NCBI GenBank assembly: GCA_963826525.1
Contig: CAWGXH010000004.1
Span: forward strand, 192,001 to 256,000
Reading direction: 5' to 3'
Length of the DNA stretch: 64,000 nucleotides
From: an uncultured Methanomicrobiaceae archaeon
Lineage (GTDB): Archaea > Halobacteriota > Methanomicrobia > Methanomicrobiales > Methanoculleaceae
The translations under genes and the position numbers were made by a program. Under the pieces are notes generated by a model. It was not told the DNA's origin. It worked only from the letters and a program-made list of their open reading frames with translations, and did not search any database. Shown here piece after piece: positions 965 to 33,189 of this stretch. The number at the start of each line of letters is the position of its first letter. Position 1 is the stretch's first letter.

Positions 965-2990
965 ATGGCAGAAGTAAAAAAGAACGAAGAGCAGCCTAAG
1001 ATTGGCGTTTTTGTGTGCCACTGCGGTACCAATATTGCGGGCTCCGTCAACATTCAGGAAGTCAAGGATTACGCCATGACGCTCCCGAACGTTGTCGTCG
1101 CCGACGAATACCAGTACATGTGCTCGACACCAGGCCAGGGAAAGATCGCCGACGCCATCAAGGAGCACGACCTGACCGGCATCGTCGTTGCGGCGTGTTC
1201 CCCGCGTCTCCACGAACCCACCTTCAGAAACGCAACGAAGGCAGGCGGGTTAAACCCCTTCCGGTTCGAGATGGCGAACATCCGTGAGCAGAACTCCTGG
1301 GTGCACATGCACCAGCCTGAGGAAGCAACAGCAAAAGCAAAGGACGCAGTCAGGATTGCCGTCGCAAAGGCATCCAAACTCGAGGACCTCTTCCCGAAGA
1401 GCGTTCCCGTTGAGAAGTCCGCGATGGTGGTCGGCGGTGGTGTCGGCGGTATGCAGGCAGCACTCGACCTTGCCGACGCAGGCATCAAGACCTACCTCGT
1501 CGAGAAGACCCCGACGATCGGCGGGCGTATGTCCCAACTCGACAAGACGTTCCCGACACTCGACTGCTCGCAGTGCATCCTGACCCCGAAGATGGTGGAC
1601 GTATACAGGAACGAGAATATCGAGCTCCTCACCTACACCGAAGTCGAGGAAGTGCAGGGATACATCGGCAACTTCGACGTCACGCTCAGAAAGAAGGCCC
1701 GCGGTGTCATCACCCCCGCCGAGGCCGAGGCACGAGGCATCGTCGGCGGCGGCTGTACCGGCTGCGGCGACTGTGTCACGGTCTGCCCCGTCATCAAGCC
1801 GAACGTCTTCGAGCTCGGCATGGCTCCACGAAAAGCCATCTATGTCTATCACCCACAGGTCGTTCCGCTCATCTACACCGTCGACTTCGACTCCTGTGTC
1901 AAGTGCGGTCTCTGTGTCGAGGCATGCGGCACGAAGAAGGCAATCGACCTCGAGATGGAAGACGAGCTCGTCACCGTCAAGGTGGGAACCGTCGTCCTGG
2001 CACTCGGGTACGAGATCTTCCCCATCGAGAAGAAGTTCGAGTGGGGCTACAAGAACTTCGACAACGTCATCACCTCGCTCGAGTTCGAGCGCCTGATTCT
2101 GTGCTTCCGGCCCGACCGGCGGCAAGCTGATCCGCCCGAGCGACGGCGAAAAGCCGAAGAAGATCGCCTTCGTGCTCTGTGCGGGTTCCCGTGACAACAC
2201 CGGCGTCGGCAAGCCCTACTGTTCACGGTTCTGTTGCATGTACTCGCTGAAGCACGCCCACCAGATCATCGAGAAGATGCCCGGAGCAATCCCGTATATC
2301 TTCTACATGGACATCCGTTCCTTCGGTAAGATGTACGAGGAGTTCTACTACCGTATTCAGGACGAGGGCGCGAAGTTCATCCGCGGCAGGGTTGCAAACA
2401 TCACCGAGGACCCCGAGAGCAAGAACCTCTTCGTCCACGCAGAGGATACGCTCCTCGGCCGGCCGGTCGATCTCGAAGTCGACATGGTCGTTCTCGCCGC
2501 CGCCATTCAGCCCACCACCGAGACCGAGAAGACCCGAAGACTCTTCGGTGTCTCGTGCTCGCAGGACGGCTGGCTGCTTGAAGCACACCCGAAGTTGAAC
2601 CCGTGCGGCACCACCACTGCCGGCGTCTACCTCGCCGGTGCCTGCCAGGGACCAAAGGATATCCCCGACACGGTCGCCCAGGCAGAGGGTGCGGCATCCG
2701 CAGCATCGATCCCGATCCACAAGGGAGAGGTCGAGCTCGAGCCCTACTTCGCCCAGTGTATGGAAGACAAGTGTGCGGGCTGCGGTCTCTGTGTGCCCCA
2801 GTGCCCCTACTCTGCGCTTGCGCTCGTCGAGAAGGACGGCAGGACGGTCATGCAGGTCACCGAGGCAAAGTGTAAGGGCTGCGGTACCTGCGGCGGATTC
2901 TGCCCCGGCGGCGCTATCTGGATGCAGCACTTCGCAACCCCGCAGATCATTGCACAGATTGACGCATTCCTCCTTGGAGGTGAGCAGTAA
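965..2990 (+). CDS. hdrA: Heterodisulfide reductase subunit A (frameshift ~2097, likely error)
   Basis: IGVFVCHCGTNIAG, ACSPRLHE, GGGVGG FAD motif, LDKTFPTLDC, ferredoxin motifs; C-terminal half (YCSRFCCMY, GACQGPKDIP) in ORF 2172-2990. Confidence 0.96.
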
Positions 2991-3415
2991 TGGCTGAAGA
3001 GAACTGGAAACCGAAGATCATCGCAATCATCTGCAACTGGTGCTCCTATGCAGGTGCCGACCTTGCCGGCGGCGCCCGTATTCAGTACCCGCCTGACGTC
3101 CGTGCCATCCGTGTAATGTGCACCGGACGTATTGACCCCCTCTTCATCCTGAAGGCATTCCAGGATGGAGCCGACGGTGTTCTCGTTTCCGGCTGCCACT
3201 TCGGTGACTGCCACTACCTCGAGGGCAACTACAAGTGCGCGAAGAGGATGTTCCTCTTAAAGAGCGTGCTCAAGAACATCGGCCTTGAAGACAACCGTCT
3301 CCGCATGACTTTCGTCTCGGCTTCCGAGGGTGCAAAGTGGGGAGCGGTCATGACAGACGTCATCAAGACGGTGAAGGATCTCGGCCCGAGCCCGATCAAA
3401 GAGTTTGCCAAGTAA
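2990..3415 (+). CDS. mvhD: MvhD [2Fe-2S] subunit (Hdr-associated)
   Basis: CNWCSYAGADLAG, RVMCTGR, SGCHFGDCHY. Confidence 0.96.
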   Translation: MAEENWKPKIIAIICNWCSYAGADLAGGARIQYPPDVRAIRVMCTGRIDPLFILKAFQDGADGVLVSGCHFGDCHYLEGNYKCAKRMFLLKSVLKNIGLEDNRLRMTFVSASEGAKWGAVMTDVIKTVKDLGPSPIKEFAK

Positions 3416-3460
3416 TTACCAAATATAACAACTCTGATATATTAAACAGGGGATGATAAA

Positions 3461-3862
3461 TTGGCAATCACAGTAAATCTGATCACGGGTCGGACGATCC
3501 AGCAGGGCGTCTCAATGGAGGGCGGGAAAGAAAAACCCGCCTACACCACCGCCTGCGGGATCATCGAGATTGACCCGTCCGACTTTGCGAAACTCGGTGC
3601 CTATCGCAACACGACCGTTCGCGTCACAAGCGCGTATGGCAGCGTTGCCGTCAAGGCAATCGAGGCAACGCAGGGACCTCACCCCGGAGTCGCGTATATA
3701 CCCATGGGCCCATGGGCGAACCAGGTGATCAACCCGAACACCTACTCAACCGGAATGCCCACGTTCAAGGGTACACCCATCGAGATCACCGAGGCAAAGA
3801 ACGAGACTGTTCTGGACTCACTCGAACTCGTGCGGAAAGCATGCCGGGGTGAAACCGTATGA
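3461..3862 (+). CDS. fwdD: Formylmethanofuran dehydrogenase subunit D
   Basis: LITGRTIQQG...IPMGPWAN...TGMPTFKG; TTG start. Confidence 0.93.
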   Translation: MAITVNLITGRTIQQGVSMEGGKEKPAYTTACGIIEIDPSDFAKLGAYRNTTVRVTSAYGSVAVKAIEATQGPHPGVAYIPMGPWANQVINPNTYSTGMPTFKGTPIEITEAKNETVLDSLELVRKACRGETV

Positions 3863-5172
3863 CAAAGACAATACCTGATGTAGTCTGCCCATTCTGCGGT
3901 ACGCTCTGCGACGACCTTGAGGTCGTCGTCAGCGATGACGGCAAGCAGCTCCTCGAGGTCTACAACGCCTGCGCCATCGGCGCCGAGAAGTTCCTCCACT
4001 CCCAGGCAGAAGACCGCCTTACCCGGCCGCGACTGGCACAGGAAGACGGCAGCTGGAAGGATGTCAGCTACGAGGAGGCTATCGAGTACACCGCACAGAT
4101 GCTCGCAAACTCCACAAAGCCGCTCATGTACGGCTGGAGTTCCACGAACTGCGAGGCACAGGGCGTCGGTTCCGAGATCGGTGAGCTCACCGGAGCGGTC
4201 ATGGATAACACCGCGACCGTCTGCCACGGAACCAGTCTAATCGCCGTACAGGATATCGGGATTCCCTCCTGCACACTCGGTGAGGTCAAGAACCGTGCCG
4301 ACCGTGTCGTCTTCTGGGGATGCAACCCCGCTCACGCCCACCCGCGGCACATGTCCCGCTACTCGATCTTCCCCCGTGGATTCTTCACCGGGAAAGGTCA
4401 CAAGGGCCGGAAAGTAATCGTCATCGACCCGCGGAAGACCGACACGGCGAACGTCGCCGATGTCCACCTGCAGATCGAGCAGGGACGCGACTACGAACTG
4501 CTTGATGCACTTCGTGTCGCCTTCAAGGGTCTGCCGCTGCCCGATGTCGTGGCAGGTATCCCGAAGAACCAGATCTACGAGGCTGCCGAGGTTCTCAAGA
4601 GCGGCCGTTTTGTGATCATCTTCTTCGGTATGGGTGTCACCCAGTCGCTCGGGAAGAACCACAACATCGACGAAGCCATTGCAGTTACTCGTGACCTGAA
4701 CGAATACACAAAAGCTGCCATCATGCCGATGCGTGGTCACTACAACGTGACGGGCTCCGGGCAGGTCTGGGGCTGGCAGTTCGGCTTCCCCTTCGCGGTC
4801 GATCTCTCCCGCGGGTTTGCACGCTACAACCCCGGCGAGACGACGTCGAACGACCTTCTCCGCAGAGACGAAGTCGACTCCGTCTTCGTCCTCGGCAGTG
4901 ACCCCGGTGCACACTTCCCGTTCAGCTCGGTCAAGAAGATCTCACAGTTGCCGTCCGTCTGCATCGACCCGCACCAGACACCTACCTCGGCAGTCTGCAA
5001 GCTGCACGTCCCGGTCGCATTCGTCGGCGTCGAAGTCGGCGGCTGTGCGTACCGTATGGACAACGTTCCGATCGAGACCAGGAAGGTCGTCGACGCCCCC
5101 GAAGGCATGATGACCGACGAGGAGTTCCTCGAGAAGGTTCTCGGACGGATCAAAGAGATCAAGGGGGAGTGA
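3859..5172 (+). CDS. fwdB: Formylmethanofuran dehydrogenase subunit B (Mo/W; Cys-type)
   Basis: VCPFCGTLCDD, TVCHG, WGCNPAHAHPRH, MRGHYNV. Confidence 0.95.
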   Translation: MTKTIPDVVCPFCGTLCDDLEVVVSDDGKQLLEVYNACAIGAEKFLHSQAEDRLTRPRLAQEDGSWKDVSYEEAIEYTAQMLANSTKPLMYGWSSTNCEAQGVGSEIGELTGAVMDNTATVCHGTSLIAVQDIGIPSCTLGEVKNRADRVVFWGCNPAHAHPRHMSRYSIFPRGFFTGKGHKGRKVIVIDPRKTDTANVADVHLQIEQGRDYELLDALRVAFKGLPLPDVVAGIPKNQIYEAAEVLKSGRFVIIFFGMGVTQSLGKNHNIDEAIAVTRDLNEYTKAAIMPMRGHYNVTGSGQVWGWQFGFPFAVDLSRGFARYNPGETTSNDLLRRDEVDSVFVLGSDPGAHFPFSSVKKISQLPSVCIDPHQTPTSAVCKLHVPVAFVGVEVGGCAYRMDNVPIETRKVVDAPEGMMTDEEFLEKVLGRIKEIKGE

Positions 5173-5175
5173 ACG

Positions 5176-6882
5176 ATGGCAGAGTATATCATCAAGAACG
5201 GATTCGTCTTCGATCCGGTCCTCGGCATCAAGGGTGACAAGGCGGACGTTGCCATCAAGAACGGCAAGTTCGTCGAGACGACGGAGTCTTCGAACCCGAA
5301 GACGATCGACGCAACCGGCATGACCGTCATGGCCGGCGGCGTCGATATCCACGCCCACGTAGCCGGCCCGAAGGTGAACATCGGCAGAAACTACCGGCCC
5401 GAAGACAAGCTCTTCAACTGCACCCCAGGGCGGGGTGTCGAGCGGATGCAGGGCGGGTTCTCGGTTCCGACCGTATTCCGGACGGGGTACGACTACGCCC
5501 ACATGGGCTACACCACCGTCATGGAAGCGGCAATGCCGCCGCTCTACGCACGCCACACCCACGAGGAGATCCGGGATACCCCGATCATCGATCAGGGTGC
5601 CTTCCCGGTCTTCGGAAACAACTGGTTCGTGCTCGAGTACCTGAAGAACCACGAGATCGAGAACACGGCATCGTACATCGCCTGGCTGCTTCGGGCAACC
5701 AAGGGGTACGCCGTCAAGGTCGTCAACCCCGGCGGCACGGAGGCATGGGGATGGGGTCTGAACTGCGATAACATTCACGACCCGGTGCCGTTCTTCGACA
5801 TCACCCCGGCGCAGATCGTGAAAGGCCTGATCGAGGCGAACGAGTACCTCGGCCTGCCGCACTCGATGCACGTCCACGCCAACAACCTTGGCAACCCCGG
5901 CAACTACCAGACCACGCTGGATACCTTCAAACTCTCCGAGGGCATCCGCCCGAACAGCAAGTTCGGCCGTGACCAGGTGATGCACCACACGCACGTTCAG
6001 TTCCATTCCTACGGCGGCGAAGGATTCAACTTCGAGTCCAAGGCTCCCGAGATCATGAACTACGTGAACAGCCACGACAACATCACCATCGATATCGGCC
6101 AGGTTACTCTGGACGAGACGACCACGATGACCGCCGACGGGCCTTTCGAGCACCACCTCACCGAGCTCAACCACTTGAAGTGGGCGAACTCCGATGTGGA
6201 GCTCGAGACCGCGGCCGGTGTCGTGCCCTTCGTCTACAGCCCAAACAACAAGGCGAACGCTGTCCAGTGGGCAATCGGCCTTGAACTCGGACTCCTCGCC
6301 AAGGATCTGATGCGGGTCTTCCTCACCACCGACCATCCGAACGCCGGTCCGTTCATCCGGTACCCGCGTGTCATGAAGTGGCTGATGAGCCAGAAGTCAC
6401 GTGAGGAGCAACTCGACGCCTTCAAGCACCGCGACAAGGTCATCGACGTGACCAATATCGCAGGTATCGACCGCGAACTCTCGCTCTACGAGATCGCCCA
6501 GATGACCCGTGCAGGAACCGCAAAGGCACTCGGCCTCTCCCACATGTACGGCAGCGTCAAGCCCGGACTTGAGGCCGACGTCGCCGTCTACAACTTCAAC
6601 CCCGAGGTAGAGAACGCACCGAACGAGATCGAGAAGGCCTTCGGCAACGCGAAGTACCTCTTCAAGGCGGGTGTCCAGATCATCGACGAGCACCAGATCG
6701 TCAGCAACGGCAACAAGCGTACCCTCTGGGTGAACGCCAAGGTCAATGAGAACCCGCAGGTGATGCGCGACGTGAAGGAGAAGTTCCTCCGCTACTACAC
6801 CGTCACGCAGGGCAACTACGAGGTCGCCGGCCACCACTACGTGCCGAACCCCTACGTCATCGAGGTCGATGCAACACAGTGA
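5176..6882 (+). CDS. fwdA: Formylmethanofuran dehydrogenase subunit A
   Basis: GGVDIHAH amidohydrolase motif, KVVNPGG, TTDHPNAGPF. Confidence 0.96.
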   Translation: MAEYIIKNGFVFDPVLGIKGDKADVAIKNGKFVETTESSNPKTIDATGMTVMAGGVDIHAHVAGPKVNIGRNYRPEDKLFNCTPGRGVERMQGGFSVPTVFRTGYDYAHMGYTTVMEAAMPPLYARHTHEEIRDTPIIDQGAFPVFGNNWFVLEYLKNHEIENTASYIAWLLRATKGYAVKVVNPGGTEAWGWGLNCDNIHDPVPFFDITPAQIVKGLIEANEYLGLPHSMHVHANNLGNPGNYQTTLDTFKLSEGIRPNSKFGRDQVMHHTHVQFHSYGGEGFNFESKAPEIMNYVNSHDNITIDIGQVTLDETTTMTADGPFEHHLTELNHLKWANSDVELETAAGVVPFVYSPNNKANAVQWAIGLELGLLAKDLMRVFLTTDHPNAGPFIRYPRVMKWLMSQKSREEQLDAFKHRDKVIDVTNIAGIDRELSLYEIAQMTRAGTAKALGLSHMYGSVKPGLEADVAVYNFNPEVENAPNEIEKAFGNAKYLFKAGVQIIDEHQIVSNGNKRTLWVNAKVNENPQVMRDVKEKFLRYYTVTQGNYEVAGHHYVPNPYVIEVDATQ

Positions 6883-6895
6883 GAGGTGAATCAGA

Positions 6896-7696
6896 ATGGA
6901 GACAGTAACACTCACCATGAAGAACCAGCCCTCACTCTGCCTCGAGGCTGACAACATCACGCCCGATTCCTTTGCCGGAAAGAAGGCAGCGGAGATCGCA
7001 GGCCTGAGCGCATACATAGGGAACACCAAGGTCACCCTCGGCGACTTCTTCGAGGTCGCCGGTAAGGGTGGAGCGACCGCAGCCGAGACCAAGATCGTCG
7101 TCAACGGGGCTCTCTCCCGCGTGAAGTACATCGGCATGAAGATGACCGGCGGCGAGATCGTCGTCAACGGCAGCCCCGACATGTACGTCGGCGCCTGGAT
7201 GCAGGGCGGCAAGATCCACGTGAAAGGAAACGTGGACGCCTTTGCAGGAACCGGGATGAAGGCCGGCGAGATCGTCATCGACGGCAACGCCGGCAACTAC
7301 CTCGGTGCCGCATACCGCGGCGACTGGCGTGGCATGCAGGGCGGCAAGATCACCGTGAAGGGCAACGCAGGCAGCGACCTCGGCACCTTCATGAACGGCG
7401 GCGAGATCGTCGTCGGCGGTGACGTTGACGTTCATGTGGGCACCCACGCCGAGGGCGGCAAGATCGTCGTCAAGGGCAACGCGAAGAGCCGCCTCGGCGG
7501 CCAGATGGTCGAAGGCGAGATCTATGTCTTCGGCACCATCGATGTCATGATGCCCGGCTTCCTCTACCGCGAGGACGTCGACCTCGAGGTCGACGGCACC
7601 AAGGCCAAATTCGCCCTCTACGAAGGCGATGTCGGCGAGCGCCACCGCAAGCGGAAGGGCGCAGTCATCTACGGCAAGCTCTACCAGAAATACTAA
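6896..7696 (+). CDS. fwdC: Formylmethanofuran dehydrogenase subunit C
   Basis: Repeated GxxMxGGxIxVxG beta-helix; AYRGDWRGM. Confidence 0.95.
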   Translation: METVTLTMKNQPSLCLEADNITPDSFAGKKAAEIAGLSAYIGNTKVTLGDFFEVAGKGGATAAETKIVVNGALSRVKYIGMKMTGGEIVVNGSPDMYVGAWMQGGKIHVKGNVDAFAGTGMKAGEIVIDGNAGNYLGAAYRGDWRGMQGGKITVKGNAGSDLGTFMNGGEIVVGGDVDVHVGTHAEGGKIVVKGNAKSRLGGQMVEGEIYVFGTIDVMMPGFLYREDVDLEVDGTKAKFALYEGDVGERHRKRKGAVIYGKLYQKY

Positions 7697-7712
7697 CCCC
7701 TCTTTTTTCCCG
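7697..7712 (+). terminator. Oligo-T terminator after fwdC
   Basis: cccctcttttttcc directly after the stop codon. Confidence 0.55.
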
Positions 7713-7739
7713 CCTCTCCAGGAGGTTTATAAAAGGTAT

Positions 7740-8040
7740 CCATTTAGAGTGTAACATAGTGTTACCTTTTTTTAGATATATCACACTGCACAAAGAGTAT
7801 AAAAAAAATAATATATTGAGCATTTCATCCGAGGATACCGGATATTTATTATCTTTGAGTTAGTATATAATTCCCCATAGATATAAACAGTAATGCTTAT
7901 ATGCGCAGAGATAGTTATTATCTTTTTGTCCCCATGAGGACGTGCAGTAGTGACTTACAGCCATCATCAGCGTGACTTTTAGTATTCAGCATTCAGTTCC
8001 AGATCGTATCCACAAATCGAGGGTTAAATGGAGGAAAAAT
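7740..8040 (+). promoter_or_regulatory. mcr operon promoter and 5' leader
   Basis: AT-rich; TATA-like ttagtatataa (~7860) and cttatatg (~7897); palindrome GTAACAtagTGTTAC at 7751-7765; GGAGG SD before ATG 8041. Confidence 0.65.
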
Positions 8041-9345
8041 ATGGCAAAATATTCAGAAACAATTGACCTGTACGACGATGCAGGCAAGCTGCTGAAGAGT
8101 GGCGTAGCACTCGACAAGATCAGCCCGCTGATCAACCCGGCAACCAGAACGCTCATCGACCTTACCAAGAGGACTATCGCAGTCAACCTCGGCGGAATCG
8201 AGAATGGACTCAAGTCCGGTAAGATCGCCAAGGGCCACATCCTCGGCCGTGAGCTGAACCTTGACATCGCCGGCAACAAGGACGCTATCGTTGCCAAGAT
8301 CAAGGAAATGGTGCAGGTCGAAGAAGGCGACGACACGATCATCCACGAGTTCGGCGGCGGCAAGCTGCTCCTCGTCGAGGTGCCGAGCAGGCGTGTCGAG
8401 GCTGCATCCACTTACGATGCCGCAGTCACCTCGGTCGCAGCCGCGACCACCTACGCACTCGTCGACCAGTTCAACATCAGCATGTTCGACGCATCGACGG
8501 TCAAGGCGGCAATCTGGGGCAGCTACCCGCACACCATGGACATGGTCGGCGCTAACGTCAGCTCCGTCCTGTCGAACCCCCAGAACAACGAAGGTCTCGG
8601 GTACGCACTCCGTAACATTCCCGTCAACCACGTTGTCATGATGACCAACCGGAATGCAATGCAGGGTGCGGCACTCTCGTCCACGCTCGAGCAGGCAGGA
8701 ATGTTCGAGATGGGCAATGCAATCGGCCCGTTCGAGCGCGCCCAGCTGCTCTCCTACGCATACCAGGGCTTAAACGCCAACAACCTGGTCTACGACCTCG
8801 TTAAGGAAAATGGCCAGACCGGAACCATCGGCAGCGTCGTCCAGAGCATGGTCGAGCGCGCCCTTGAAGACAAGGTCATCGCACCCGGCAAGAAGGGCGG
8901 CTACTTCCAGTTCTACGACACCAAGGACCCGATGCTCTGGAACGCCTACGCAGCTGCAGGAACCATGGCAGCAACCATGGTGAACTGTGGTGCCGGCCGG
9001 TTCGCCCAGGCCGTCTCCTCGACGCTGCTGTACTTCAACGACCTGCTTGAGCACGAGACCGGCCTGCCCGGCTGTGACTACGGCCGTGTCATGGGTACTG
9101 CCGTCGGATTCTCGTTCTTCAGCCACTCCATCTACGGTGGCGGTGGCCCCGGTATCTTCAACGGAAACCACGTCGTCACCCGGCACGCAGCAGGTGTCGC
9201 AATTCCGTGTGTGGTCGCTGCAGCAGCGCTTGACGCAGGAACACAGATGTTCTCGGCAGAGAGCACCTCCAAGATCTACGCCGACACCTACGGTAAGATC
9301 GATGTGTTCAACAAGCCCATCCAGCAGATCGCAAACGGTGTATAA
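8041..9345 (+). CDS. mcrB: Methyl-coenzyme M reductase beta subunit
   Basis: MAKYSETIDLYDD..., GFSFFSHSIYGGGGPGIFNGNHVVTRH. Confidence 0.98.
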   Translation: MAKYSETIDLYDDAGKLLKSGVALDKISPLINPATRTLIDLTKRTIAVNLGGIENGLKSGKIAKGHILGRELNLDIAGNKDAIVAKIKEMVQVEEGDDTIIHEFGGGKLLLVEVPSRRVEAASTYDAAVTSVAAATTYALVDQFNISMFDASTVKAAIWGSYPHTMDMVGANVSSVLSNPQNNEGLGYALRNIPVNHVVMMTNRNAMQGAALSSTLEQAGMFEMGNAIGPFERAQLLSYAYQGLNANNLVYDLVKENGQTGTIGSVVQSMVERALEDKVIAPGKKGGYFQFYDTKDPMLWNAYAAAGTMAATMVNCGAGRFAQAVSSTLLYFNDLLEHETGLPGCDYGRVMGTAVGFSFFSHSIYGGGGPGIFNGNHVVTRHAAGVAIPCVVAAAALDAGTQMFSAESTSKIYADTYGKIDVFNKPIQQIANGV

Positions 9346-9360
9346 ATACCATAGATTAGA

Positions 9361-9834
9361 ATGACTGACGCCATATACCCTCAGTGCAGAATTGTCTCTG
9401 CACGGTTCCTCAAGCCCAATACTGCGGAACGGCTCCTGAACCGGATCGTAGAGGTCGGTGGGATCCGGAGGATGTCCATCAACGGACCATCCATCCCCGC
9501 CACCGTCCCCTACGGCCCCGCACGGGGGAAACCAAACCCCCACCCGGACAGGAAAGCGATCCATGTCGGCGATCAGGAGATCCAGCTCAGAGTGCAGGTA
9601 GGCACCATTGTCCTGGAACTCTGTGACGAGAGTCTCATTCCGGCAATGAGAGAGGCATGCGACGAGATATTCGCAGACCTCGGGTTTTCGTATACACTCC
9701 AGCAGGGGCGGTTCATGAAGACGCAGCCGAGCCTCTCTGACTATGTCAAATACGGTCCCGACGCCGAAGATCAGATACTTGGGCTTGTCGATCCGAAACG
9801 GAAAGACGGATTCACCATCGTTCAGGGAAGATAA
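9361..9834 (+). CDS. mcrD: MCR operon protein D
   Basis: INGPSIPATVPYGPARG motif; position in operon. Confidence 0.95.
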   Translation: MTDAIYPQCRIVSARFLKPNTAERLLNRIVEVGGIRRMSINGPSIPATVPYGPARGKPNPHPDRKAIHVGDQEIQLRVQVGTIVLELCDESLIPAMREACDEIFADLGFSYTLQQGRFMKTQPSLSDYVKYGPDAEDQILGLVDPKRKDGFTIVQGR

Positions 9835-26832: not shown

Positions 26833-27560
26833 ATGCCCGACGGAGAAGAGATGGATGCTCCACCTGCTGCCTGATGAACCAGACGCTCGAAGAAGCTGAG
26901 TCGTTCTGCCCCCATACAAATCTGGTGGAGATCTCCGACGGCATTCATTCTCTCTTTTTATCCGAAGAGATCTGCGATCGTTCGACCTCCGGTATACGGT
27001 GCATGCACCCTGCGCCGATATCAATATCGCATCGGAGAATGAACGATTGCGGAAGGCAGCCATCACAGTAATCGCCGATCTGGCCACAATTTGCGACAGG
27101 ATAGGAGCAGAACGGATGGTTATTCTCGGGACGCATATGGGGAGAGGAGATGCGGAGCGTCTCCCAGAAAGCCCTTGAAAACTCGCTGATAGACCTGAAA
27201 AGACTACAGGAAGACCGGAACGTCCGACTCACCATCGAGAATATGGGATCGTGGGACTCCTACTTATTCAGGGAGCCGGCGTTTCTGGACCGGCTGGCCG
27301 ATCTCAACCTCGGCTTTACCCTTGATGTGGGGCATGCTCATGTGAACGGCCTCCTTGAAACGTTTCTGGAACGCGGGGGGGCAGTTCTGCTCATCTGCAC
27401 GACAACAGGGGATACAGCGACGACCATCTGGCATGCGGGGAAGGGAGTATCGATTTCGAGCCGGTCATGCGGTCGCTCCCCGCAAATGCCACGAAGATAG
27501 TAGAACCCATGGAACTGCAACACTATTTCAGTGAGTCTCGAACACCTGACGTCACTCTCG
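26833..27560 (+). CDS. Sugar-phosphate isomerase/epimerase (xylose isomerase-like TIM barrel), frameshifted
   Basis: LTIENMG, GFTLDVGHAHVNG, HLHDN.G..DDHL..G.G.IDF motifs spread across frames; boundaries approximate. Confidence 0.7.
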
Positions 27561-27745
27561 GGTGATCTTGCTCGATCGATCCGGCGCCCCCGGCCGATCA
27601 ACTGTTCCACGGCTTTTTGAAACTCAAGGAAAGACAGTGAGATTTCCTGGCTCTCCAAACCCCGGATACGCGTTCGCGCCGCGCGACGAGACGGTGCGCC
27701 CTCCCGCATCCAGGCGAAGGTGCCAGTAGGTCACGTCCGCGGCGT
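27560..27745 (-). pseudogene. Truncated paralog of the adjacent hypothetical gene
   Basis: 27661-27738 closely repeats 27854-27930 (DVTYWHLRLDAGGRTVSSRGANAYPG), then diverges; the 5' part is missing. Confidence 0.6.
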
Positions 27746-27756
27746 GAAATATGAGG

Positions 27757-28191
27757 TTATGGCAGGGAGTGCCTGTGGCTGCACGTATCGATCAGGGAGG
27801 AGAGAGCGGTGAGGAGCGCTGTAAACGATTCCGACGGTTCGTCGGAACCGGTGCCGGGGTACGCATTCGCACCGCGCGACGAGACGGTGCGCCCTCCCGC
27901 ATCCAGGCGGAGGTGCCAGTAGGTTACGTCGCAGCAGGCGTGAACACCGTCGTACTCGCTCTCCCAGTCCCAGACACCAATCCGCTCAAGCGCTGCGAAG
28001 AATGTCTCCCAGGCATCTCGATCGGGGTCGAGCTCGAGGACGTCTCCCGAGTACCTCCCTCCCGGTGTCCGTTCACAGATGAGCGTATCCCCCTCCAGGC
28101 GGAGATACAGCGACGGCCCCCCGCTGCCGCCAAGATAGAAGACAAAAAAGGACGGGGGCGGATGCCCGGTATTCCGGCCGGATGGTTCCAT
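27757..28191 (-). CDS. Hypothetical protein
   Basis: 144-aa ORF with protein-like composition (LERIGVWDWESEY...SSRGANAYP). Confidence 0.7.
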   Translation of the reverse strand: MEPSGRNTGHPPPSFFVFYLGGSGGPSLYLRLEGDTLICERTPGGRYSGDVLELDPDRDAWETFFAALERIGVWDWESEYDGVHACCDVTYWHLRLDAGGRTVSSRGANAYPGTGSDEPSESFTALLTALSSLIDTCSHRHSLP

Positions 28192-28206
28192 ACGGATATG
28201 TTCCGC

Positions 28207-28981
28207 CTACAGCAGTATAAGGGCGACGAAACCTGCGGCAGAGAGTGCCATCAGGACGAACCCGACCCCGTCAACGGCACCGAAACCGACCTCACGCAGA
28301 GGCGTCCGGGTTCCGTTCCGGTACCCCCGCAGGTCGATCGTCAGGCCAAGGACGTTCGCTTTCCCGAGAGAGTTTGAGACCAGCGGGATGATCACCGGGA
28401 AGAGACTCCTGATCTTTCCTGCGAGCCCCTTCCCCGGCGCATATGCCCGGGCAAGCTGTGCTTCGTGAATCCGCTTTCCCTCGAGCCTGAAGGCTCGGGA
28501 TAAACCGCAGCGCGATCAGGAACATGAGGGTATAGTCGATCGGCATGTGAAGTTTGTCCATCACCTGCACGAGGTCGCGGGGCTGCGTGGAGACGATGAA
28601 GAGCTGGAAGGCAAAGATCATCGCAACGAACCGCAGGGTCATCGAGGCCGCAAGGTCGACGGCTCCCATAGTGATCGGGATATACCCGCCGAAGATCGGG
28701 ATCAGGTACCCGAGCACCTCGCCGCTCTGCAGGGTCAGTACCGTCAGGATGAGCAGGCTGACGGCGAGGGATATGAGGAGGGGCACCTGCCGCAGGAGCT
28801 CGCGGGCAAGGCCGCTCACCGCTGCTGCGATCAGGATCAGGCCGACGAGCAGCGTGAGTGCCGGAACCTCGGTCAGGATGACGGCGAGGACGACCACAAG
28901 CCCGGTGAAGACGACCTTGGTCATGGGGTTTAAACGGTGGAAGTAGCTGTCCCTGTTGATATACTGCATAATTTCTGGCAT
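28207..28981 (-). CDS. ecfT: ECF transporter transmembrane T component (frameshift ~28485)
   Basis: FHRLNPMTK, IALRFIP, EAQLARA, DLRGY coupling motifs. Confidence 0.9.
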
Positions 28982-31032
28982 GCAATCTCCTCAAAGTTCC
29001 GGACGTCCCGGAGAATGATTCCGTCTTCCATTGCAATGATACGGTCGGCATACTCACGCACGAGCCGCATGTTGTGAGTGACCATCAGGATGGTGCACCC
29101 CTCCCTCTGGAGCCGCTGGACGATCTCCATCACGCGCTGCGTCTCCCGGGCATCGAGTCCGGTCGTCGGCTCGTCGAGAACGATCACCTTCGGGCGCATG
29201 GCGATGACGCAGGCGAGGGCAAGGCTTTGGCGTTCTCCACGGCTGAGCGAGCGGGGATACTGGTTCCGGTGATCGGCGAGGCCGACCTCTGCGAGGACGG
29301 CATCGATCAGTTCCCGGTGATCGGCAAGCCCGATGTTCGAAAGGCCGAACGCGATCTCCTCCTCCACTGTCTCGGCAAAGAGCATGGTATCGGGGTTCTG
29401 GAAGACGAGGCCGACGTGCCGGGCGAGCTCCGTCACCGGTGTCGTGGCCGCATCGAGCCCGTCGACAAGAACGGTGCCCTCGGTCGGCCTGAGCAGCCCG
29501 TTGAGATGCTTGACAAGAGTCGTCTTCCCGGAGCCGTTTTCACCGACGATGGCAACGATATCGCCGGGAAGTATCTCGAGGTCCACGCCTGCAAGAGCAG
29601 TCGCCTCTCCATACCGGTGGACAAGCCCGCGGATGGTTATAATCGGACTGATGCCCGCGGATGGCTGCGCAGGGGCGGACATCGGAGCAGCAGGGAGAAT
29701 TTCGGGCTCGGGTGCATCGTCGACCTCGATGAGGCTTCTGACACGCTCGCTCTTCAGCAGGACGTCCGGGGCTCCCTCGGCCGCGATTTTTCCGTCCTCT
29801 ATCAGGATCATGCGGTCGGCCAGCCGGGAGAGTTCATCGACTTTGTGCTCGACGATCACGATCGTCTTTCCTTCCTCCTTCAGGCGCTGCAGGATCCCGA
29901 GGATGGCCTCGGTGGCGATTGTATCGAGTTCCGCCGTGGGTTCGTCGAGGATGAGGAGATCCGTTCCGAGCGCCAGCGTGGCTGCGATCGTAACCCGCTG
30001 CTTCTGGCCGCCCGAGAGGGTGTGCGGTGCACGTTCCAGCAGGTGGGCGATACCGGTGACATCGGTGACGTAGTCCATCCGTCTCTGCATCTCGGCACGG
30101 TCGAGCCCCTGATTCTCAAGACCCGAGACCACTTCTTCCTCGACCGTGGTGAAGATGAGCTGGGCGTCGGCATCGTCGAAGACGACCCCGACCTTTTTCC
30201 CGATCTCACCCATATCCCGGTAGGCCGCGACGTCCTTTCCGGCGATGCTGAGATTGCCGGCAAACGCGCCGCCGTATTCGTGGTAGAGAATGCCGGACGC
30301 GGCAAGGCAGAGCGTTGTCTTCCCGGCACCGGTCGGGCCGGTGACGAGAAGGCACTCCCCCCGCGCGACGTCGAGGTCGATGCCGGCAAGGGCGGGACGC
30401 GTCCCCTGCGGGTAGGTGTAGGATACGTTGCTCATGCTGATCGGCGCATCGGCCTTCGGATTCCTGACGGCCGGGCTGGAGTTCCCCTCGCCGCCGCCCG
30501 GCGCAAGGCGGTACTGTGTCCGCATCAGGACGCGGGATGCAGGCATGTAGAGGGCCTGTGCGACCACCCCGTTGGCACCTGCAGCCAGCAGGACGATCGG
30601 CACCGTGACGATCAGGAACGCATCGATTGTGCCGTACTTCCCGACGATGACCGGGTACTGGGCCATAATGGCAATGGCAACGAACGTGAGGCCGCTTGCC
30701 AGCGTGGCGATGAAAGTCGTTATCGCAGGCGCCACGACGATACGGTCGCGGAGCAGGAGAATGACACCAAGGCAGACGATTGCCCCGATAGGTTCGCTGA
30801 TCAGGTTTCCGGGCGGGAAGACCGAGTGGCTGATCAGGGCACAGACGACTCCCGAGACGATACCGATGCCGACTGCTTCCTTCACCGTCGGTATGATGAG
30901 GATGATGGCAAGGCAGTAGAAGGCAATAACCAGGTTCGAGACGATGGGTCCCGGCACCAGGAGGGAGAGGTATCTCACGATCGCCCCGATGGCGAGGAGG
31001 ATACCGACGATTGCTATATCTCGTGATTTCAT
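28930..31032 (-). CDS. ECF S component (TrpP-like) fused to two ABC ATPase domains
   Basis: Hydrophobic N-terminal ~170 aa, then GPTGAGKT/LSGGQKQR/DEP and GENGSGKT/LSRGERQ/DEP; the TrpP assignment is from recalled family resemblance. Confidence 0.85.
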   Translation of the reverse strand: MKSRDIAIVGILLAIGAIVRYLSLLVPGPIVSNLVIAFYCLAIILIIPTVKEAVGIGIVSGVVCALISHSVFPPGNLISEPIGAIVCLGVILLLRDRIVVAPAITTFIATLASGLTFVAIAIMAQYPVIVGKYGTIDAFLIVTVPIVLLAAGANGVVAQALYMPASRVLMRTQYRLAPGGGEGNSSPAVRNPKADAPISMSNVSYTYPQGTRPALAGIDLDVARGECLLVTGPTGAGKTTLCLAASGILYHEYGGAFAGNLSIAGKDVAAYRDMGEIGKKVGVVFDDADAQLIFTTVEEEVVSGLENQGLDRAEMQRRMDYVTDVTGIAHLLERAPHTLSGGQKQRVTIAATLALGTDLLILDEPTAELDTIATEAILGILQRLKEEGKTIVIVEHKVDELSRLADRMILIEDGKIAAEGAPDVLLKSERVRSLIEVDDAPEPEILPAAPMSAPAQPSAGISPIITIRGLVHRYGEATALAGVDLEILPGDIVAIVGENGSGKTTLVKHLNGLLRPTEGTVLVDGLDAATTPVTELARHVGLVFQNPDTMLFAETVEEEIAFGLSNIGLADHRELIDAVLAEVGLADHRNQYPRSLSRGERQSLALACVIAMRPKVIVLDEPTTGLDARETQRVMEIVQRLQREGCTILMVTHNMRLVREYADRIIAMEDGIILRDVRNFEEIACQKLCSISTGTATSTV

Positions 31033-31096
31033 ATTCGATCGTTAGGTTGGGATATTCGGATAGCGATGCGGGCTATGGAGTGAACGGTAAGAAAAA

Positions 31097-31189
31097 TCAC
31101 CAGGGACGCCAGCGAGGCTGTGAGACCGGCCGTTTGACAGGGGAGGCCATCCGGCACACTGCATGGGAGCCGGAAGATATCGGGCACAT
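31097..31189 (-). CDS. Putative Trp-containing leader peptide MCPISSGSHAVCRMASPVKRPVSQPRWRPW
   Basis: ATG at the predicted TSS; two TGG codons in the last four; stop followed immediately by TTTTTCTT. Confidence 0.6.
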   Translation of the reverse strand: MCPISSGSHAVCRMASPVKRPVSQPRWRPW

Positions 31190-31204
31190 TACATTATGAA
31201 ACAT

Positions 31205-31222
31205 CTATGTATAAACTTGTAC
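31205..31222 (-). promoter_or_regulatory. TATA box for the uORF/ECF operon
   Basis: TTTATACA at 31215-31208 (minus strand); its 5' end is 26 nt upstream of ATG 31189. Confidence 0.65.
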
Positions 31223-31310
31223 ATTTGAGTATATATAATCACCTCTTTGCTGTCGCACTATCGTGGCGATCTGTGGGGCTGCCGCAAAAATAGATTGACC
31301 TGATGAAGCG

Positions 31311-31940
31311 TTACCGGTGACGCATCGCCAGCAGTGCGCCCGCAGCAATCAATGCGGCAATGGTGCCGGCAAGCGGGGCAGGAACCGGTGTCGGCTCAGG
31401 AGTCGCCACCGTCGTCTCCGGCGTGGCGGTCGGTGACGGTGTTGGTGCAGGAGTGAGCTCCGCCGGAGGTTCGGTAGCCGGCGTCTCGACGGCACCGACC
31501 GACCCGGGCCCAATCAGGATGACCGGAGTAACGACGTACGAGTGGCCGGCAAGATCCCTGCGATCGACAGGTGCATCGACAACGTACACCGAGTAGGTTC
31601 CACCGTCAAGACCGGTGCCGACCGTATCCCACTTCACGGACCAGGTGTTGTCCGCCAGAACCGGGGCCGTGGTAAAGGTGCCGGGCTCTCCGGTAATGAC
31701 GGGGTCAAAGGGCTTCTCCAGGCTTCCTCCGCCCGCCGGGAGATTCGGACCGGTCACGAAGAGATAGACCGTATCGCTTCCGGTGCTCGTCCCCGACAAG
31801 GGAATCTCTTCACCGAGGTACGCAGTAACACTCTGCTCTGCGCTTACGGGCAGCACCACCCCGGCGGCGAGGATGAGGAGCAGGACGCAGGCAGATGCCC
31901 ACGGCACACCGCTCCCGACAGGTCTCAACAGAAGGCGCAT
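31311..31940 (-). CDS. Secreted/surface protein with Pro/Thr linker and C-terminal membrane anchor
   Basis: Signal peptide ...VVLPVSA, YLFVTGPNLP, GTYSVYVV, PT-rich stalk, TM helix plus RHR tail. Confidence 0.8.
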   Translation of the reverse strand: MRLLLRPVGSGVPWASACVLLLILAAGVVLPVSAEQSVTAYLGEEIPLSGTSTGSDTVYLFVTGPNLPAGGGSLEKPFDPVITGEPGTFTTAPVLADNTWSVKWDTVGTGLDGGTYSVYVVDAPVDRRDLAGHSYVVTPVILIGPGSVGAVETPATEPPAELTPAPTPSPTATPETTVATPEPTPVPAPLAGTIAALIAAGALLAMRHR

Positions 31941-31980
31941 AACAACTACACGGGTGCCGCCACCCAGATGAAGATTTCCA

Positions 31981-33189
31981 TCACCGCAGACCGACCCGGT
32001 ATCCTGCCTCTGATAGCACCGTTTCAATCTCGCGGATATGCTCATATCCCCGGGTCTCCATCTCGATATCCACACGGGACGCGAAGAGGGAAAGTTCCCT
32101 GCCGTGCCTGGCGTGTTGAATCGTGAGGATATTTGCACGAAGACGGGTCAGGAGGGAGAGCAGTCCGACAAGCGCCCCGGGTTCGTCCTGCAGGCAGACC
32201 GAAAACCGCATGATTCTTCCCGTCTCGAGGAGCTGCCGACGGAGAACCCGGTCGAGGATCAGCGGGTCGATGTTGCCGCCGCTGATGACGGGAACTACCC
32301 GGCTTCCTTGCGGAACCCGGATACTGCCGTTCAGCAGAGCCGCGAGCGAAACGGCACCGGCACCTTCGGCAAGCACCTTCTTCCGCTCGAGGAGGTGGAT
32401 GACGGCAGTAGCGATCTCCTCCTCGGTGACGAGAACTATCTCGTCGACCAGGTGCCGGATCACGGGGAACGTCTCCTTCCCTACCTGCCTGACCGTGATC
32501 CCGTCCGCAATGGAGTACTCGGGATCGATGCTGACCCGCTCACCGGCCCGGCACGCTTCGCAGGCGGAGGGGCATGCCGCAGTCTCGACACCGATGATCC
32601 GGACGGCCGGGTTGATCCCCTTGACGGCGGTGGCAAGACCGGCGGCGAGGCCGCCTCCGCCGATGGGGACGATGACGACGTCGGGTTCGGACAGATCCGA
32701 AAGGATCTCAAGGCCGACGGTTCCCTGACCGGCAATAACGAGAGGGTCATCGTAGGGGTGGATATAAAAAAGACCTTCCCGGTCGGCCATCTCCTCTGCT
32801 ATCGCCAGGCTCTCGGCCAGCCGCTCTCCCCGCAGAAGCACCCGGGCGCCGTAACTCCGGGTCGCCTCCTGCTTTGCGAGCGATGCGCTCTCCGGCATGA
32901 CGATCGTTGCCGGAATACCGATCTCCCTGGCGGCAAGGGCAACTCCCTGCGCATGATTTCCCGCCGAGGCCGTGATGACACCGCCCGGCCCGATCGCATC
33001 ACGGCGGGCGAGGATGGCATTGGTTGCTCCGCGGATCTTAAACGACCCGGTCTTCTGCAGATTTTCGAGTTTGAGATAGACCTCTGCGCCGGTCATCCGG
33101 GAAAAACTCGGGGAGTGGATGAGCGGGGTAGCAATGACCCTTCCCCGCAGCCGCTCTGCAGCAAGGCGGACGTCATCCAGGGAGACCAT
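31981..33189 (-). CDS. ilvA: Threonine/serine ammonia-lyase with C-terminal ACT domain
   Basis: KLENLQKTGSFKIRGA, SAGNHAQG, PIGGGGL, ISGGNID. Confidence 0.9.
   Translation of the reverse strand: MVSLDDVRLAAERLRGRVIATPLIHSPSFSRMTGAEVYLKLENLQKTGSFKIRGATNAILARRDAIGPGGVITASAGNHAQGVALAAREIGIPATIVMPESASLAKQEATRSYGARVLLRGERLAESLAIAEEMADREGLFYIHPYDDPLVIAGQGTVGLEILSDLSEPDVVIVPIGGGGLAAGLATAVKGINPAVRIIGVETAACPSACEACRAGERVSIDPEYSIADGITVRQVGKETFPVIRHLVDEIVLVTEEEIATAVIHLLERKKVLAEGAGAVSLAALLNGSIRVPQGSRVVPVISGGNIDPLILDRVLRRQLLETGRIMRFSVCLQDEPGALVGLLSLLTRLRANILTIQHARHGRELSLFASRVDIEMETRGYEHIREIETVLSEAGYRVGLR

Follow-up and report, generated by a model that had tools for sequence, protein, structure and literature searches.

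Why would an archaeal importer that contains no tryptophan (Trp) be preceded by a short open reading frame (ORF) that ends in Trp codons? The question is raised by a stretch of 64,000 nucleotides (nt) from an uncultured Methanomicrobiaceae archaeon (GenBank assembly GCA_963826525.1, contig CAWGXH010000004.1, positions 192,001 to 256,000), called the window here and used for all coordinates unless another contig is named. Its minus strand carries, between 31,238 and 28,207, a promoter with a palindromic operator, a leader ORF and the genes of an energy-coupling factor (ECF) transporter, probably of the TrpP type. Leader-peptide sensing of amino-acid supply is a classic form of bacterial gene control, and the leader in the window looks like an archaeal counterpart of the bacterial amino-acid-sensing leader peptides. 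The answer towards which we lean is that this operon would be governed by operator repression together with a Trp-sensing leader ORF, whose stalled ribosome would raise expression.

In the window the leader ORF ends in W-R-P-W followed by TGA. A preliminary description of the locus had drawn it as a 30-codon ORF, MCPISSGSHAVCRMASPVKRPVSQPRWRPW, opening at ATG 31189. The sequence and the stop codon (31099-31097) stand, and the only two Trp codons were verified among the last four codons (31111-31109 and 31102-31100), but ATG 31189 is codon 6, and the start conserved in the orthologues is ATG 31204. The same description proposed a search for short ORFs with terminal Trp in the orthologues, and these were found. 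Such an upstream ORF (uORF), defined as 24-67 codons with Trp in the last 7 codons and a gap of 48-82 nt to the main ATG, is kept in 33 of 101 orthologous loci, from six genera and four families. Under our own genus numbers, g1 being the genus of the window, the counts are 3/3 in g1, 22/37 in g4, 5/6 in g8, 1/2 in g20, 1/2 in g18 and 1/1 in g37. One more raw match (L084) turned out to be the C-terminal end of a paralogue lying upstream and was dropped from this set. The Trp lies 1-7 codons before the leader stop. The conserved ATG follows the operator by 0-3 nt in most uORF loci and, as anchored by our script, by up to 13 nt in a few. The cases in family f5 (L070 and L071), with the ATG 13 and 32 nt past the operator, are tentative, and the other g18 genome examined does not share the feature. 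The peptides end in …QPRWRPW-stop in g1, in …QPRWRP(Y/H/C)-stop and variants in g4, in …(H/S/P)WRW-stop in g8 and in …CWQWRLH-stop in g20. The second Trp is thus present in g1, g8 and g20, with Y, H or C in its place in most of g4.

Between the conserved ATG and the invariant TGG, 12 distances occur, ranging from 54 to 189 nt; each is a multiple of three, and no stop interrupts the frame. A regular-expression count found this frame in 28 of 31 loci; the misses at L002 and L051 are anchor errors, and L025 is the single true exception. Indels inside the end block of the leader are 3 nt long. In a nucleotide alignment of 24 long leaders (A1), TGG-CG is the sole invariant block (columns T96 G97 G98 C99 G100), and the Pro and Arg codons that flank the TGG vary at their third positions. 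Column entropy was 0.96, 0.82 and 1.13 at codon positions 1, 2 and 3, and the ratio of nonsynonymous to synonymous variation (pN/pS) was 0.65 in the frame of the ORF and 0.90 and 1.10 in the two shifted ones, in a peptide-guided alignment that favours the tested frame. Short ORFs with at least two Trp in the last 6 codons occur in 4 of 1542 upstream regions of this genome. Upstream-ORF scans for H, C, M, Y, F and W in the same genome gave 46 raw matches without an obvious link, the downstream genes being unannotated. The comparison supports a conserved, frame-maintained coding feature with Trp near its stop, and its translation is predicted. Since the Trp codons stand at the very end of the leader and on the same transcript as the importer, the arrangement is that of a gauge for charged tRNA.

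Variants of the leader were seen within g4. In five orthologues (L022, L033, L037, L041 and L046) the leader ORF contains an insert that is rich in repeats and has inverted repeats within it, placed between the …CTCTTC(C/T)GGCC and CACGCTGGCG blocks. The leader of L033 is about 100 nt longer than usual, and its frame stays open through the insert (67 codons) and ends in QPRWRPH-stop. Eleven loci (L004-L009, L011, L012, L016, L040 and L044) have short leaders, with 80-105 nt from operator to gene. The operator is found in all eleven and an ATG just after it in most, the Trp block is lost, and the ORFs, which end between 36 nt before and 4 nt into the main ORF, are not frame-conserved.

Upstream of the leader, the orthologues align well over an AT-rich ATATATAT-type box, which lies 26 nt upstream of the conserved ATG in the window and orthologues alike, followed by a 16-bp palindrome. 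The palindrome reads TGTACA-N4-TATACA in the window (consensus TGTAYA-N4-TRTACA) and lies between the TATA element and the leader ATG. The promoter therefore had to be redrawn. The TATA box of the preliminary description, TTTATACA, is at the position given for it (31215-31208), but it is the 3' half-site of the operator, since in most orthologues (most of genus g4) this half reads TTTGTACA, which is not TATA-like; the TATA element is TTATATATA. The transcription start site (TSS) at about ATG 31189 could not be upheld either, the assignments of TATA, TSS and start codon having been off by 15-23 nt. By the usual archaeal spacing from TATA to TSS, the TSS is predicted near 31208, about 4 nt upstream of ATG 31204, so the ORF is predicted to be leaderless.

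An operator was called when at least 11 of the 12 consensus positions matched within 300 nt upstream of an orthologue. It was found at 79 of the 101 loci and, for two families outside the order Methanomicrobiales, at 7/8 and 5/5 loci. We then scanned both strands of the 3.06-Mb genome with a position weight matrix (PWM) made from the ECF operators of other genera. Among distinct sites, the ECF promoter ranked first (31.4 bits), a site before the gene of a 511-residue (aa) AMP-binding acyl-CoA ligase second (23.9 bits) and the promoter of the trpB2-trpEGDCFBA operon third (18.2 / 17.4 bits). At the trp operon the operator reads TGTATATTACTGTACA and overlies the TATA box, 16 nt upstream of the start codon of trpB2. 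In relatives, 29 of 30 trpB2 loci (about 4.3 kb each) have their highest-scoring PWM match in the promoter, nearly always beginning at -36/-37 from the ATG. These positions, in the gap between TATA and TSS at the ECF gene and atop the TATA box at trp, are typical of an archaeal repressor. As a motif, the operator shared by the importer and the trp operon is well supported, and it would serve as a repressor site. The protein that binds it is likely a Trp-responsive regulator of the TrpY kind; in Methanothermobacter thermautotrophicus, according to PMC6737238, TrpY binds TRP boxes and represses trpEGCFBAD. The uORFs that the preliminary description anticipated at trp biosynthesis operons were not found, the trpB2 ATG following its promoter directly. 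A cluster of TGTACA on contig C11 of this genome (10400-10760), with at least six (G/A)TGTACA repeats beside large ORFs, is iteron-like; it was rejected as a Trp operator, the region being mobile-element-like by its ORF translations alone.

The transporter also points to Trp. The description of the importer as Trp-free held: the 700-aa protein contains no Trp, and the single W of EcfT is confined to an out-of-frame tail. Among the 2264 ORFs of this genome that reach 150 aa, none without Trp is longer than this protein; genome-wide, Trp stands at 0.92%. Orthologous S + A-A' proteins from 41 loci hold 4 Trp in 24,251 aa, and S homologues (n=120) hold 2 in 21,748 aa; in paralogous ABC ATPases encoded by this genome the Trp content is 0.41%. 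The avoidance of Trp is genuine and family-wide. The assignment of the S domain to TrpP was borne out for its relatives but not for the window itself. Among 28 aligned S homologues, 58-73% identical to that of the window, 20 match PF17099 (TrpP; best E 1.2e-12), while the window's own copy matched no Pfam or NCBIfam family even at E up to 10. PF17099 is also a precomputed match on many cluster representatives of the S homologues, and some homologues are named 'tryptophan transporter' in public sources; a profile search of the S domain against solved structures returned nothing meaningful (best E 0.49). Transitive homology thus supports a place for the S domain in the TrpP neighbourhood, with the window copy itself unmatched. 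Trp is the predicted substrate from context, namely the operator in common with the trp operon, the clustering with trpB2 and the avoidance of Trp. Orthologues of the transporter are present in 192 of 251 sampled genomes of the order and, beyond it, in 8/37, 10/15 and 1/8 genomes of three other families in the phylum.

Gene order gives independent support for the link of the importer to Trp. In genus g11 the order is trpB2, a NAD-kinase-like gene, ligase, S, A-A', T (L120, G104:C22:21000-34000, genes 2935-9720, all co-directional), and in genus g19 it is ligase, S-A-A', T. In both genera the ligase is clearly orthologous to the one that bears the operator here, at 58-62% identity, with the next best match reaching no more than 31%. 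The operator-bearing ligase gene lies outside the window (G000 contig C4:305048-306657; locus L119:1548-3158), G000 being the genome of the window. As to its specificity, NCBIfam gave generic acyl-CoA ligase models alone, all below their cut-offs. Methanogens are known to use aryl acids, and the ligase may activate an imported carboxylic acid, e.g., an aryl acid as a Trp precursor; with the ligase in the same cluster, a Trp precursor stays a possible substrate of the importer.

Some further observations concern these genes. The NAD-kinase-like gene of the g11 cluster, which had no NCBIfam match, also ends the trp operon of this genome (C4:809264-810367). GGTGATCC abuts the trpB2 ATG (G000 C4:801434-801446) and is the exact complement of GGAUCACC in the 3' end of the 16S rRNA, GGAUCACCUCCU. 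A conserved, related TGATAYC stands just upstream of the main ATG of the importer in many orthologues, the window having GATCGAAT. In family f4 (L054-L059, L084 and L085) two paralogous S genes lie in tandem. The second is the fused S-A-A' gene, and the narrow interval in front of it holds the operator and then a stretch rich in purines, with no uORF.

The features of the locus are collected in Table 1. The main ATG of the 700-aa protein is 31032. Its ATPases are of the ECF type, with matches over two stretches each to TIGR04520 (411.7 bits, cut-off 315) and TIGR04521 (390.5 bits, cut-off 330) and two Pfam ABC_tran matches, and its N-terminal membrane domain of about 180 aa is the S domain. 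The fusion of S to both ATPase domains was found in three genera. The T component adjoining the ATPases gave 57.8 bits with PF02361 on 28292-28981, and tblastn with two orthologous EcfT proteins moves from frame -3 to frame -1 at the frameshift. This split is either an assembly error or genuine decay of the transporter in this genome. Just downstream of EcfT, a duplicated segment (27560-28191, minus strand) encodes …YWHLRLDAGGRTVSSRGANAYPG… twice; neither of its ORFs (27624-27734 and 27757-28191) matches Pfam.

Table 1. Features of the ECF importer locus, with positions in the window
Feature	Position	Strand	Basis
TATA element TTATATATA, predicted TSS near 31208	31230..31238	minus	box position conserved in orthologues
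Palindromic operator AATGTACAAGTTTATACAT, core TGTACAAGTTTATACA at 31223-31208	31207..31225	minus	conservation, PWM rank
Leader ORF, 35 codons and TGA, MFHNVMCPISSGSHAVCRMASPVKRPVSQPRWRPW	31097..31204	minus	frame conservation, pN/pS
Trp codon 1 (TGG), then Arg (CGT)	31109..31111	minus	invariant TGG-CG in the 24-leader alignment
Trp codon 2 (TGG), last sense codon; TGA at 31099-31097	31100..31102	minus	sequence; genus comparison
T-tract TTTTTCTT directly after the stop	31089..31096	minus	weak hairpin with 31115-31097 and T-run
C-rich, G-poor unstructured spacer of 64 nt, including the conserved block CATCGCTATCCGAATA at 31068-31053	31033..31096	minus	composition, folding
Fused ECF S (TrpP-like, residues about 1-180) + EcfA + EcfA', 700 aa, Trp-free	28930..31032	minus	profile matches, Trp count
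EcfT (CbiQ family), frameshift near 28,47x-28,48x	28207..28981	minus	Pfam CbiQ match; tblastn frame switch

In the reading that we prefer, the first layer of control would be a TrpY-type repressor at the palindromic operator, common to the importer and the trp operon. The transcript would begin about 4 nt before ATG 31204, with the leaderless 35-codon ORF as its first cistron, and the only conserved part of this cistron is its end: Trp-Arg, 0-5 more codons and a stop, mostly TGA. When charged tRNA-Trp is scarce, ribosomes would pause at the UGG codons and cover the last leader codons and the first nucleotides of the C-rich unstructured spacer, and more of the Trp-free transporter would be made as a result. 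That the effect would be positive is deduced from the protein. A transporter free of Trp would be built for Trp shortage, and obligatory completion of the leader would then be self-defeating, from which we infer that a stall should aid expression, or at least not block it. Of the routes from pause to output, the likeliest would be that the pause prevents premature termination or polarity in the spacer. This would be likeliest in g1 and in some of g8, which have a T-tract; in the genus of the window it is a U5 tract with a weak hairpin. Second, the pause could melt a pairing, UGGCG:CGCC, between the Trp-Arg codons and a block upstream of the main AUG. Third, the paused ribosome could protect the 5' end of the mRNA from decay.

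The spacer and its folding bear on these routes. The 64-nt spacer after TTTTTCTT, with 22 C and 7 G, was confirmed; pooled over 34 loci, including the later-dropped L084, its composition is A 27, C 33, G 15 and T 25%. The 3' part of the leader is less stable than dinucleotide shuffles (mean z +0.74, 33 loci). RNAalifold on the 24 leaders returned four pairs at -1.36 kcal/mol with no compensatory change, and a search of 27500-32500 against Rfam at E up to 1 gave no relevant family, just a chance lncRNA match elsewhere. A riboswitch or other structured RNA built on the g4 hairpin CUCCGGGA…UCCCGGAG was rejected, given these four pairs and a folding no better than that of shuffles; this hairpin is peculiar to g4 and falls within the leader ORF. 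The candidate helix of the second route would pair UGGCG(UC), from the Trp-Arg codons, with (GA)uCGCC, in a conserved block 22-27 nt before the main AUG, in 4-6 pairs. Pairing is possible in 83% of cells, and controls with the partner shifted by 1-3 columns reach 31-55%. Covariation was found neither in this helix, one arm of which is fixed by codons and so held invariant, nor in the RNAalifold pairs, and a riboswitch or T-box leader thus finds no support.

Archaeal RNA polymerase terminates without hairpins, and the first route can be given a narrower form: a hairpin-free ribosome attenuator native to Archaea, in which FttA/aCPSF1, whether or not a U-tract assists, would be kept by the paused ribosome from terminating ahead of the importer gene. 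This attenuator and the TrpY-type operator would work as a pair, like the attenuator and the repressor of E. coli. In this specific form we regard the idea as rather improbable. In the model of the preliminary description, the stalled ribosome shields a U-tract terminator right after the stop so that polymerase reads through. In the window the W-R-P-W codons can form a weak terminator-like hairpin of 7 pairs (3 of them G-C) followed by T5, which comes at once after the stop there and in the sister genome. T-runs of 4-6 lie within 30 nt of the stop in three g8 loci and in the third g1 locus, and aCPSF1 is reported to act together with U-tracts (PMC8716108). Within the same 30 nt, however, a T-run of at least 5 is found in 3 of the 33 uORF loci and one of at least 4 in 6 of 33, with no g4 locus among the latter. 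Shielding of a U-tract therefore cannot be general, and as a general mechanism it is improbable; at best it would be a lineage-specific elaboration, which may apply in the genus of the window.

A different sensor would be an arrest peptide like TnaC. Abundant free Trp, with the …FWPLPQPRWRP-x-stop tail, would stall the ribosome near the UGA and lower synthesis of the transporter, for example through blocked ribosome traffic or reinitiation. Feedback by free Trp would be physiologically sensible for an importer. About 13 C-terminal residues are conserved in g4, with Pro and Arg around the Trp, and the stop is TGA in 31 of 33 loci, compared with 60% genome-wide, although this enrichment may reflect common descent. 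Across families just the W and an adjacent R or P are kept (HWRW-stop, SWRW-stop, CWQWRLH-stop, EPW-stop, PRW-stop), with no shared motif of tunnel length and no likeness to the W12-D16-P24 spacing of TnaC, and the operator already supplies repression by Trp. We consider an arrest peptide to be quite unlikely.

The leader ORF could instead be a constitutive device for ribosome loading or reinitiation on a main ORF that lacks a Shine-Dalgarno (SD) sequence, its Trp codons sensing nothing. That no SD precedes the main ATG had been noted earlier, and there is indeed no GGAGG, but this is not distinctive: an SD-like word was found at 327 of 2264 crude gene starts, and starts without SD are the rule in this genome. 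The ATG after the operator is also kept in the g4 short leaders that lack the Trp block, in a geometry that suits coupling, and the spacer is unstructured and so poor in G that it should offer few start-like triplets. Such a device does not account for TGG-CGN as the one block that three families keep invariant, a gap of 48-82 nt is long for reinitiation, and an obligatory read-through of Trp codons would cancel the benefit of a Trp-free transporter. We give this explanation the same low standing as the arrest peptide. Finally, that the CGCUGGCG block acts as a nucleic acid (a site for an RNA- or DNA-binding protein, or the arm of the UGGCG:CGCC helix) with an incidental open frame is very unlikely: a 6-pair helix shows the pairability given above, and the downstream block GAUCGCCCGUCGAA is conserved even in leaders without the uORF, but a non-coding element would not be expected to keep its frame over 12 lengths and 3-nt indels or to vary at third codon positions, and it finds no covariation, no Rfam family (E up to 1) and no excess folding energy.

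Several points weigh against a Trp-sensing leader whose stalled ribosome raises expression. The uORF is missing in 68 of the 101 loci, including 15 of 37 in g4 and all 13 outside the order, and is therefore dispensable. Its coding signal is modest. Classical starvation sensors usually carry tandem cognate codons, and many g4 leaders retain one Trp codon. The last 13 or so residues are conserved within g4 (LFWPLPQPRWRPY), beyond the need of a pure codon sensor, which hints at an effect of the nascent peptide. No route from pause to output is backed by a conserved covarying helix or a general T-run. According to a hypothesis in the Discussion of PMC11616081, termination by FttA follows uncoupling of the ribosome; on a simple view, stalling should then lower expression and not raise it. 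The S domain of the window, as said, is matched by no family. With EcfT frameshifted in the assembly, the importer operon may be inactive in this genome. The comparison of the operator with TRP boxes depends on a TGTACA consensus for these boxes and on a regulation of trpB2 by TrpY; full-text searches of the literature found no paper combining TGTACA and TrpY.

Set beside known systems, the arrangement has parts in common with several of them. In bacterial trpL, the Trp codons of a leader peptide gauge charged tRNA-Trp, atop a Trp repressor and operator. Here too a short leader ORF with Trp codons near its end is added to an operator that is probably Trp-responsive. Unlike trpL, the archaeal leader has no alternative terminator and antiterminator hairpins (the four RNAalifold pairs and the positive mean z given above). 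As to the U-tract of the trpL terminator, the window has a T-tract after the leader, and T-runs of at least 5 occur in 3 of the 33 uORF loci. Further differences are the archaeal host, a short ORF that is probably leaderless, and the gene that would be controlled, namely the importer; the biosynthetic operon has no leader here.

TnaC responds to free Trp and, by way of Rho, switches on the catabolic tna operon of E. coli; its peptide has a conserved W-x3-D-x7-P-stop. The two leaders are alike in being linked to Trp, in a (here putative) stall next to a UGA stop and in a C-rich unstructured spacer suited to a termination factor. An importer that avoids Trp points, in contrast to TnaC, to the sensing of starvation; there is no evident sequence similarity, neither the spacing nor the Asp of TnaC being found in the leader peptides (…QPRWRPW-stop, …HWRW-stop, …CWQWRLH-stop), and Archaea use FttA/aCPSF1 in place of Rho.

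With trpL, the nearest functional analogues are the leaderless short ORFs of mycobacteria with polycysteine (bioRxiv 10.1101/834739), which form the first cistron, sense supply through ribosome pausing at cognate codons and thereby govern the genes that follow. The leader of the importer is likewise predicted to be a leaderless first cistron with cognate codons as the supply sensor. Several mycobacterial loci share the logic and rely on an RNA duplex that masks the downstream start and that a stalled ribosome blocks. The archaeal case differs in the amino acid (Trp), in having one or two codons and not a tract, and in its domain; the one duplex candidate found, UGGCG:CGCC with 4-6 pairs, has the pairability given above but neither covariation nor excess stability.

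The TrpY/TRP-box system shares with the present operator TGTACA-type half-sites at repressor positions in trp promoters, including that of trpB2. The candidate regulon here extends to the ECF importer and the acyl-CoA ligase, and the conservation of the operator, a 16-bp palindrome, reaches over Methanomicrobiales and into two other families of the phylum. Bacterial TrpP (YhaG) is controlled by TRAP or T-box elements. The S component of the bacterial ECF transporters (PF17099) and the archaeal S domain would be one protein family by transitive homology and would be alike in their co-regulation with Trp genes. The archaeal S differs from the bacterial one in being fused to both ATPase domains in the three genera mentioned and in its putative regulation by operator and leader ORF. 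Full-text searches, which left most subscription journals uncovered, returned no archaeal amino-acid-sensing leader ORF and no regulation of an archaeal trpP.

For the methanogens, these results define a candidate operator of a Trp regulon across Methanomicrobiales and two further families, and connect the supply of tryptophan with both a TrpP-type importer and an acyl-CoA ligase that is so far uncharacterised. The leader is of high interest as a small system, open to mutation, in which the coupling of transcription to translation could be tested in Archaea. Competition between ribosome and FttA on nascent archaeal RNA is put forward as an open hypothesis in the Discussion of PMC11616081, and a short, conserved and easily mutated leader before a reporter-friendly gene would make it directly testable. 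If the narrower form of the first route, the hairpin-free attenuator, is true, no earlier description exists of an archaeon that naturally uses transcription-translation coupling for regulation.

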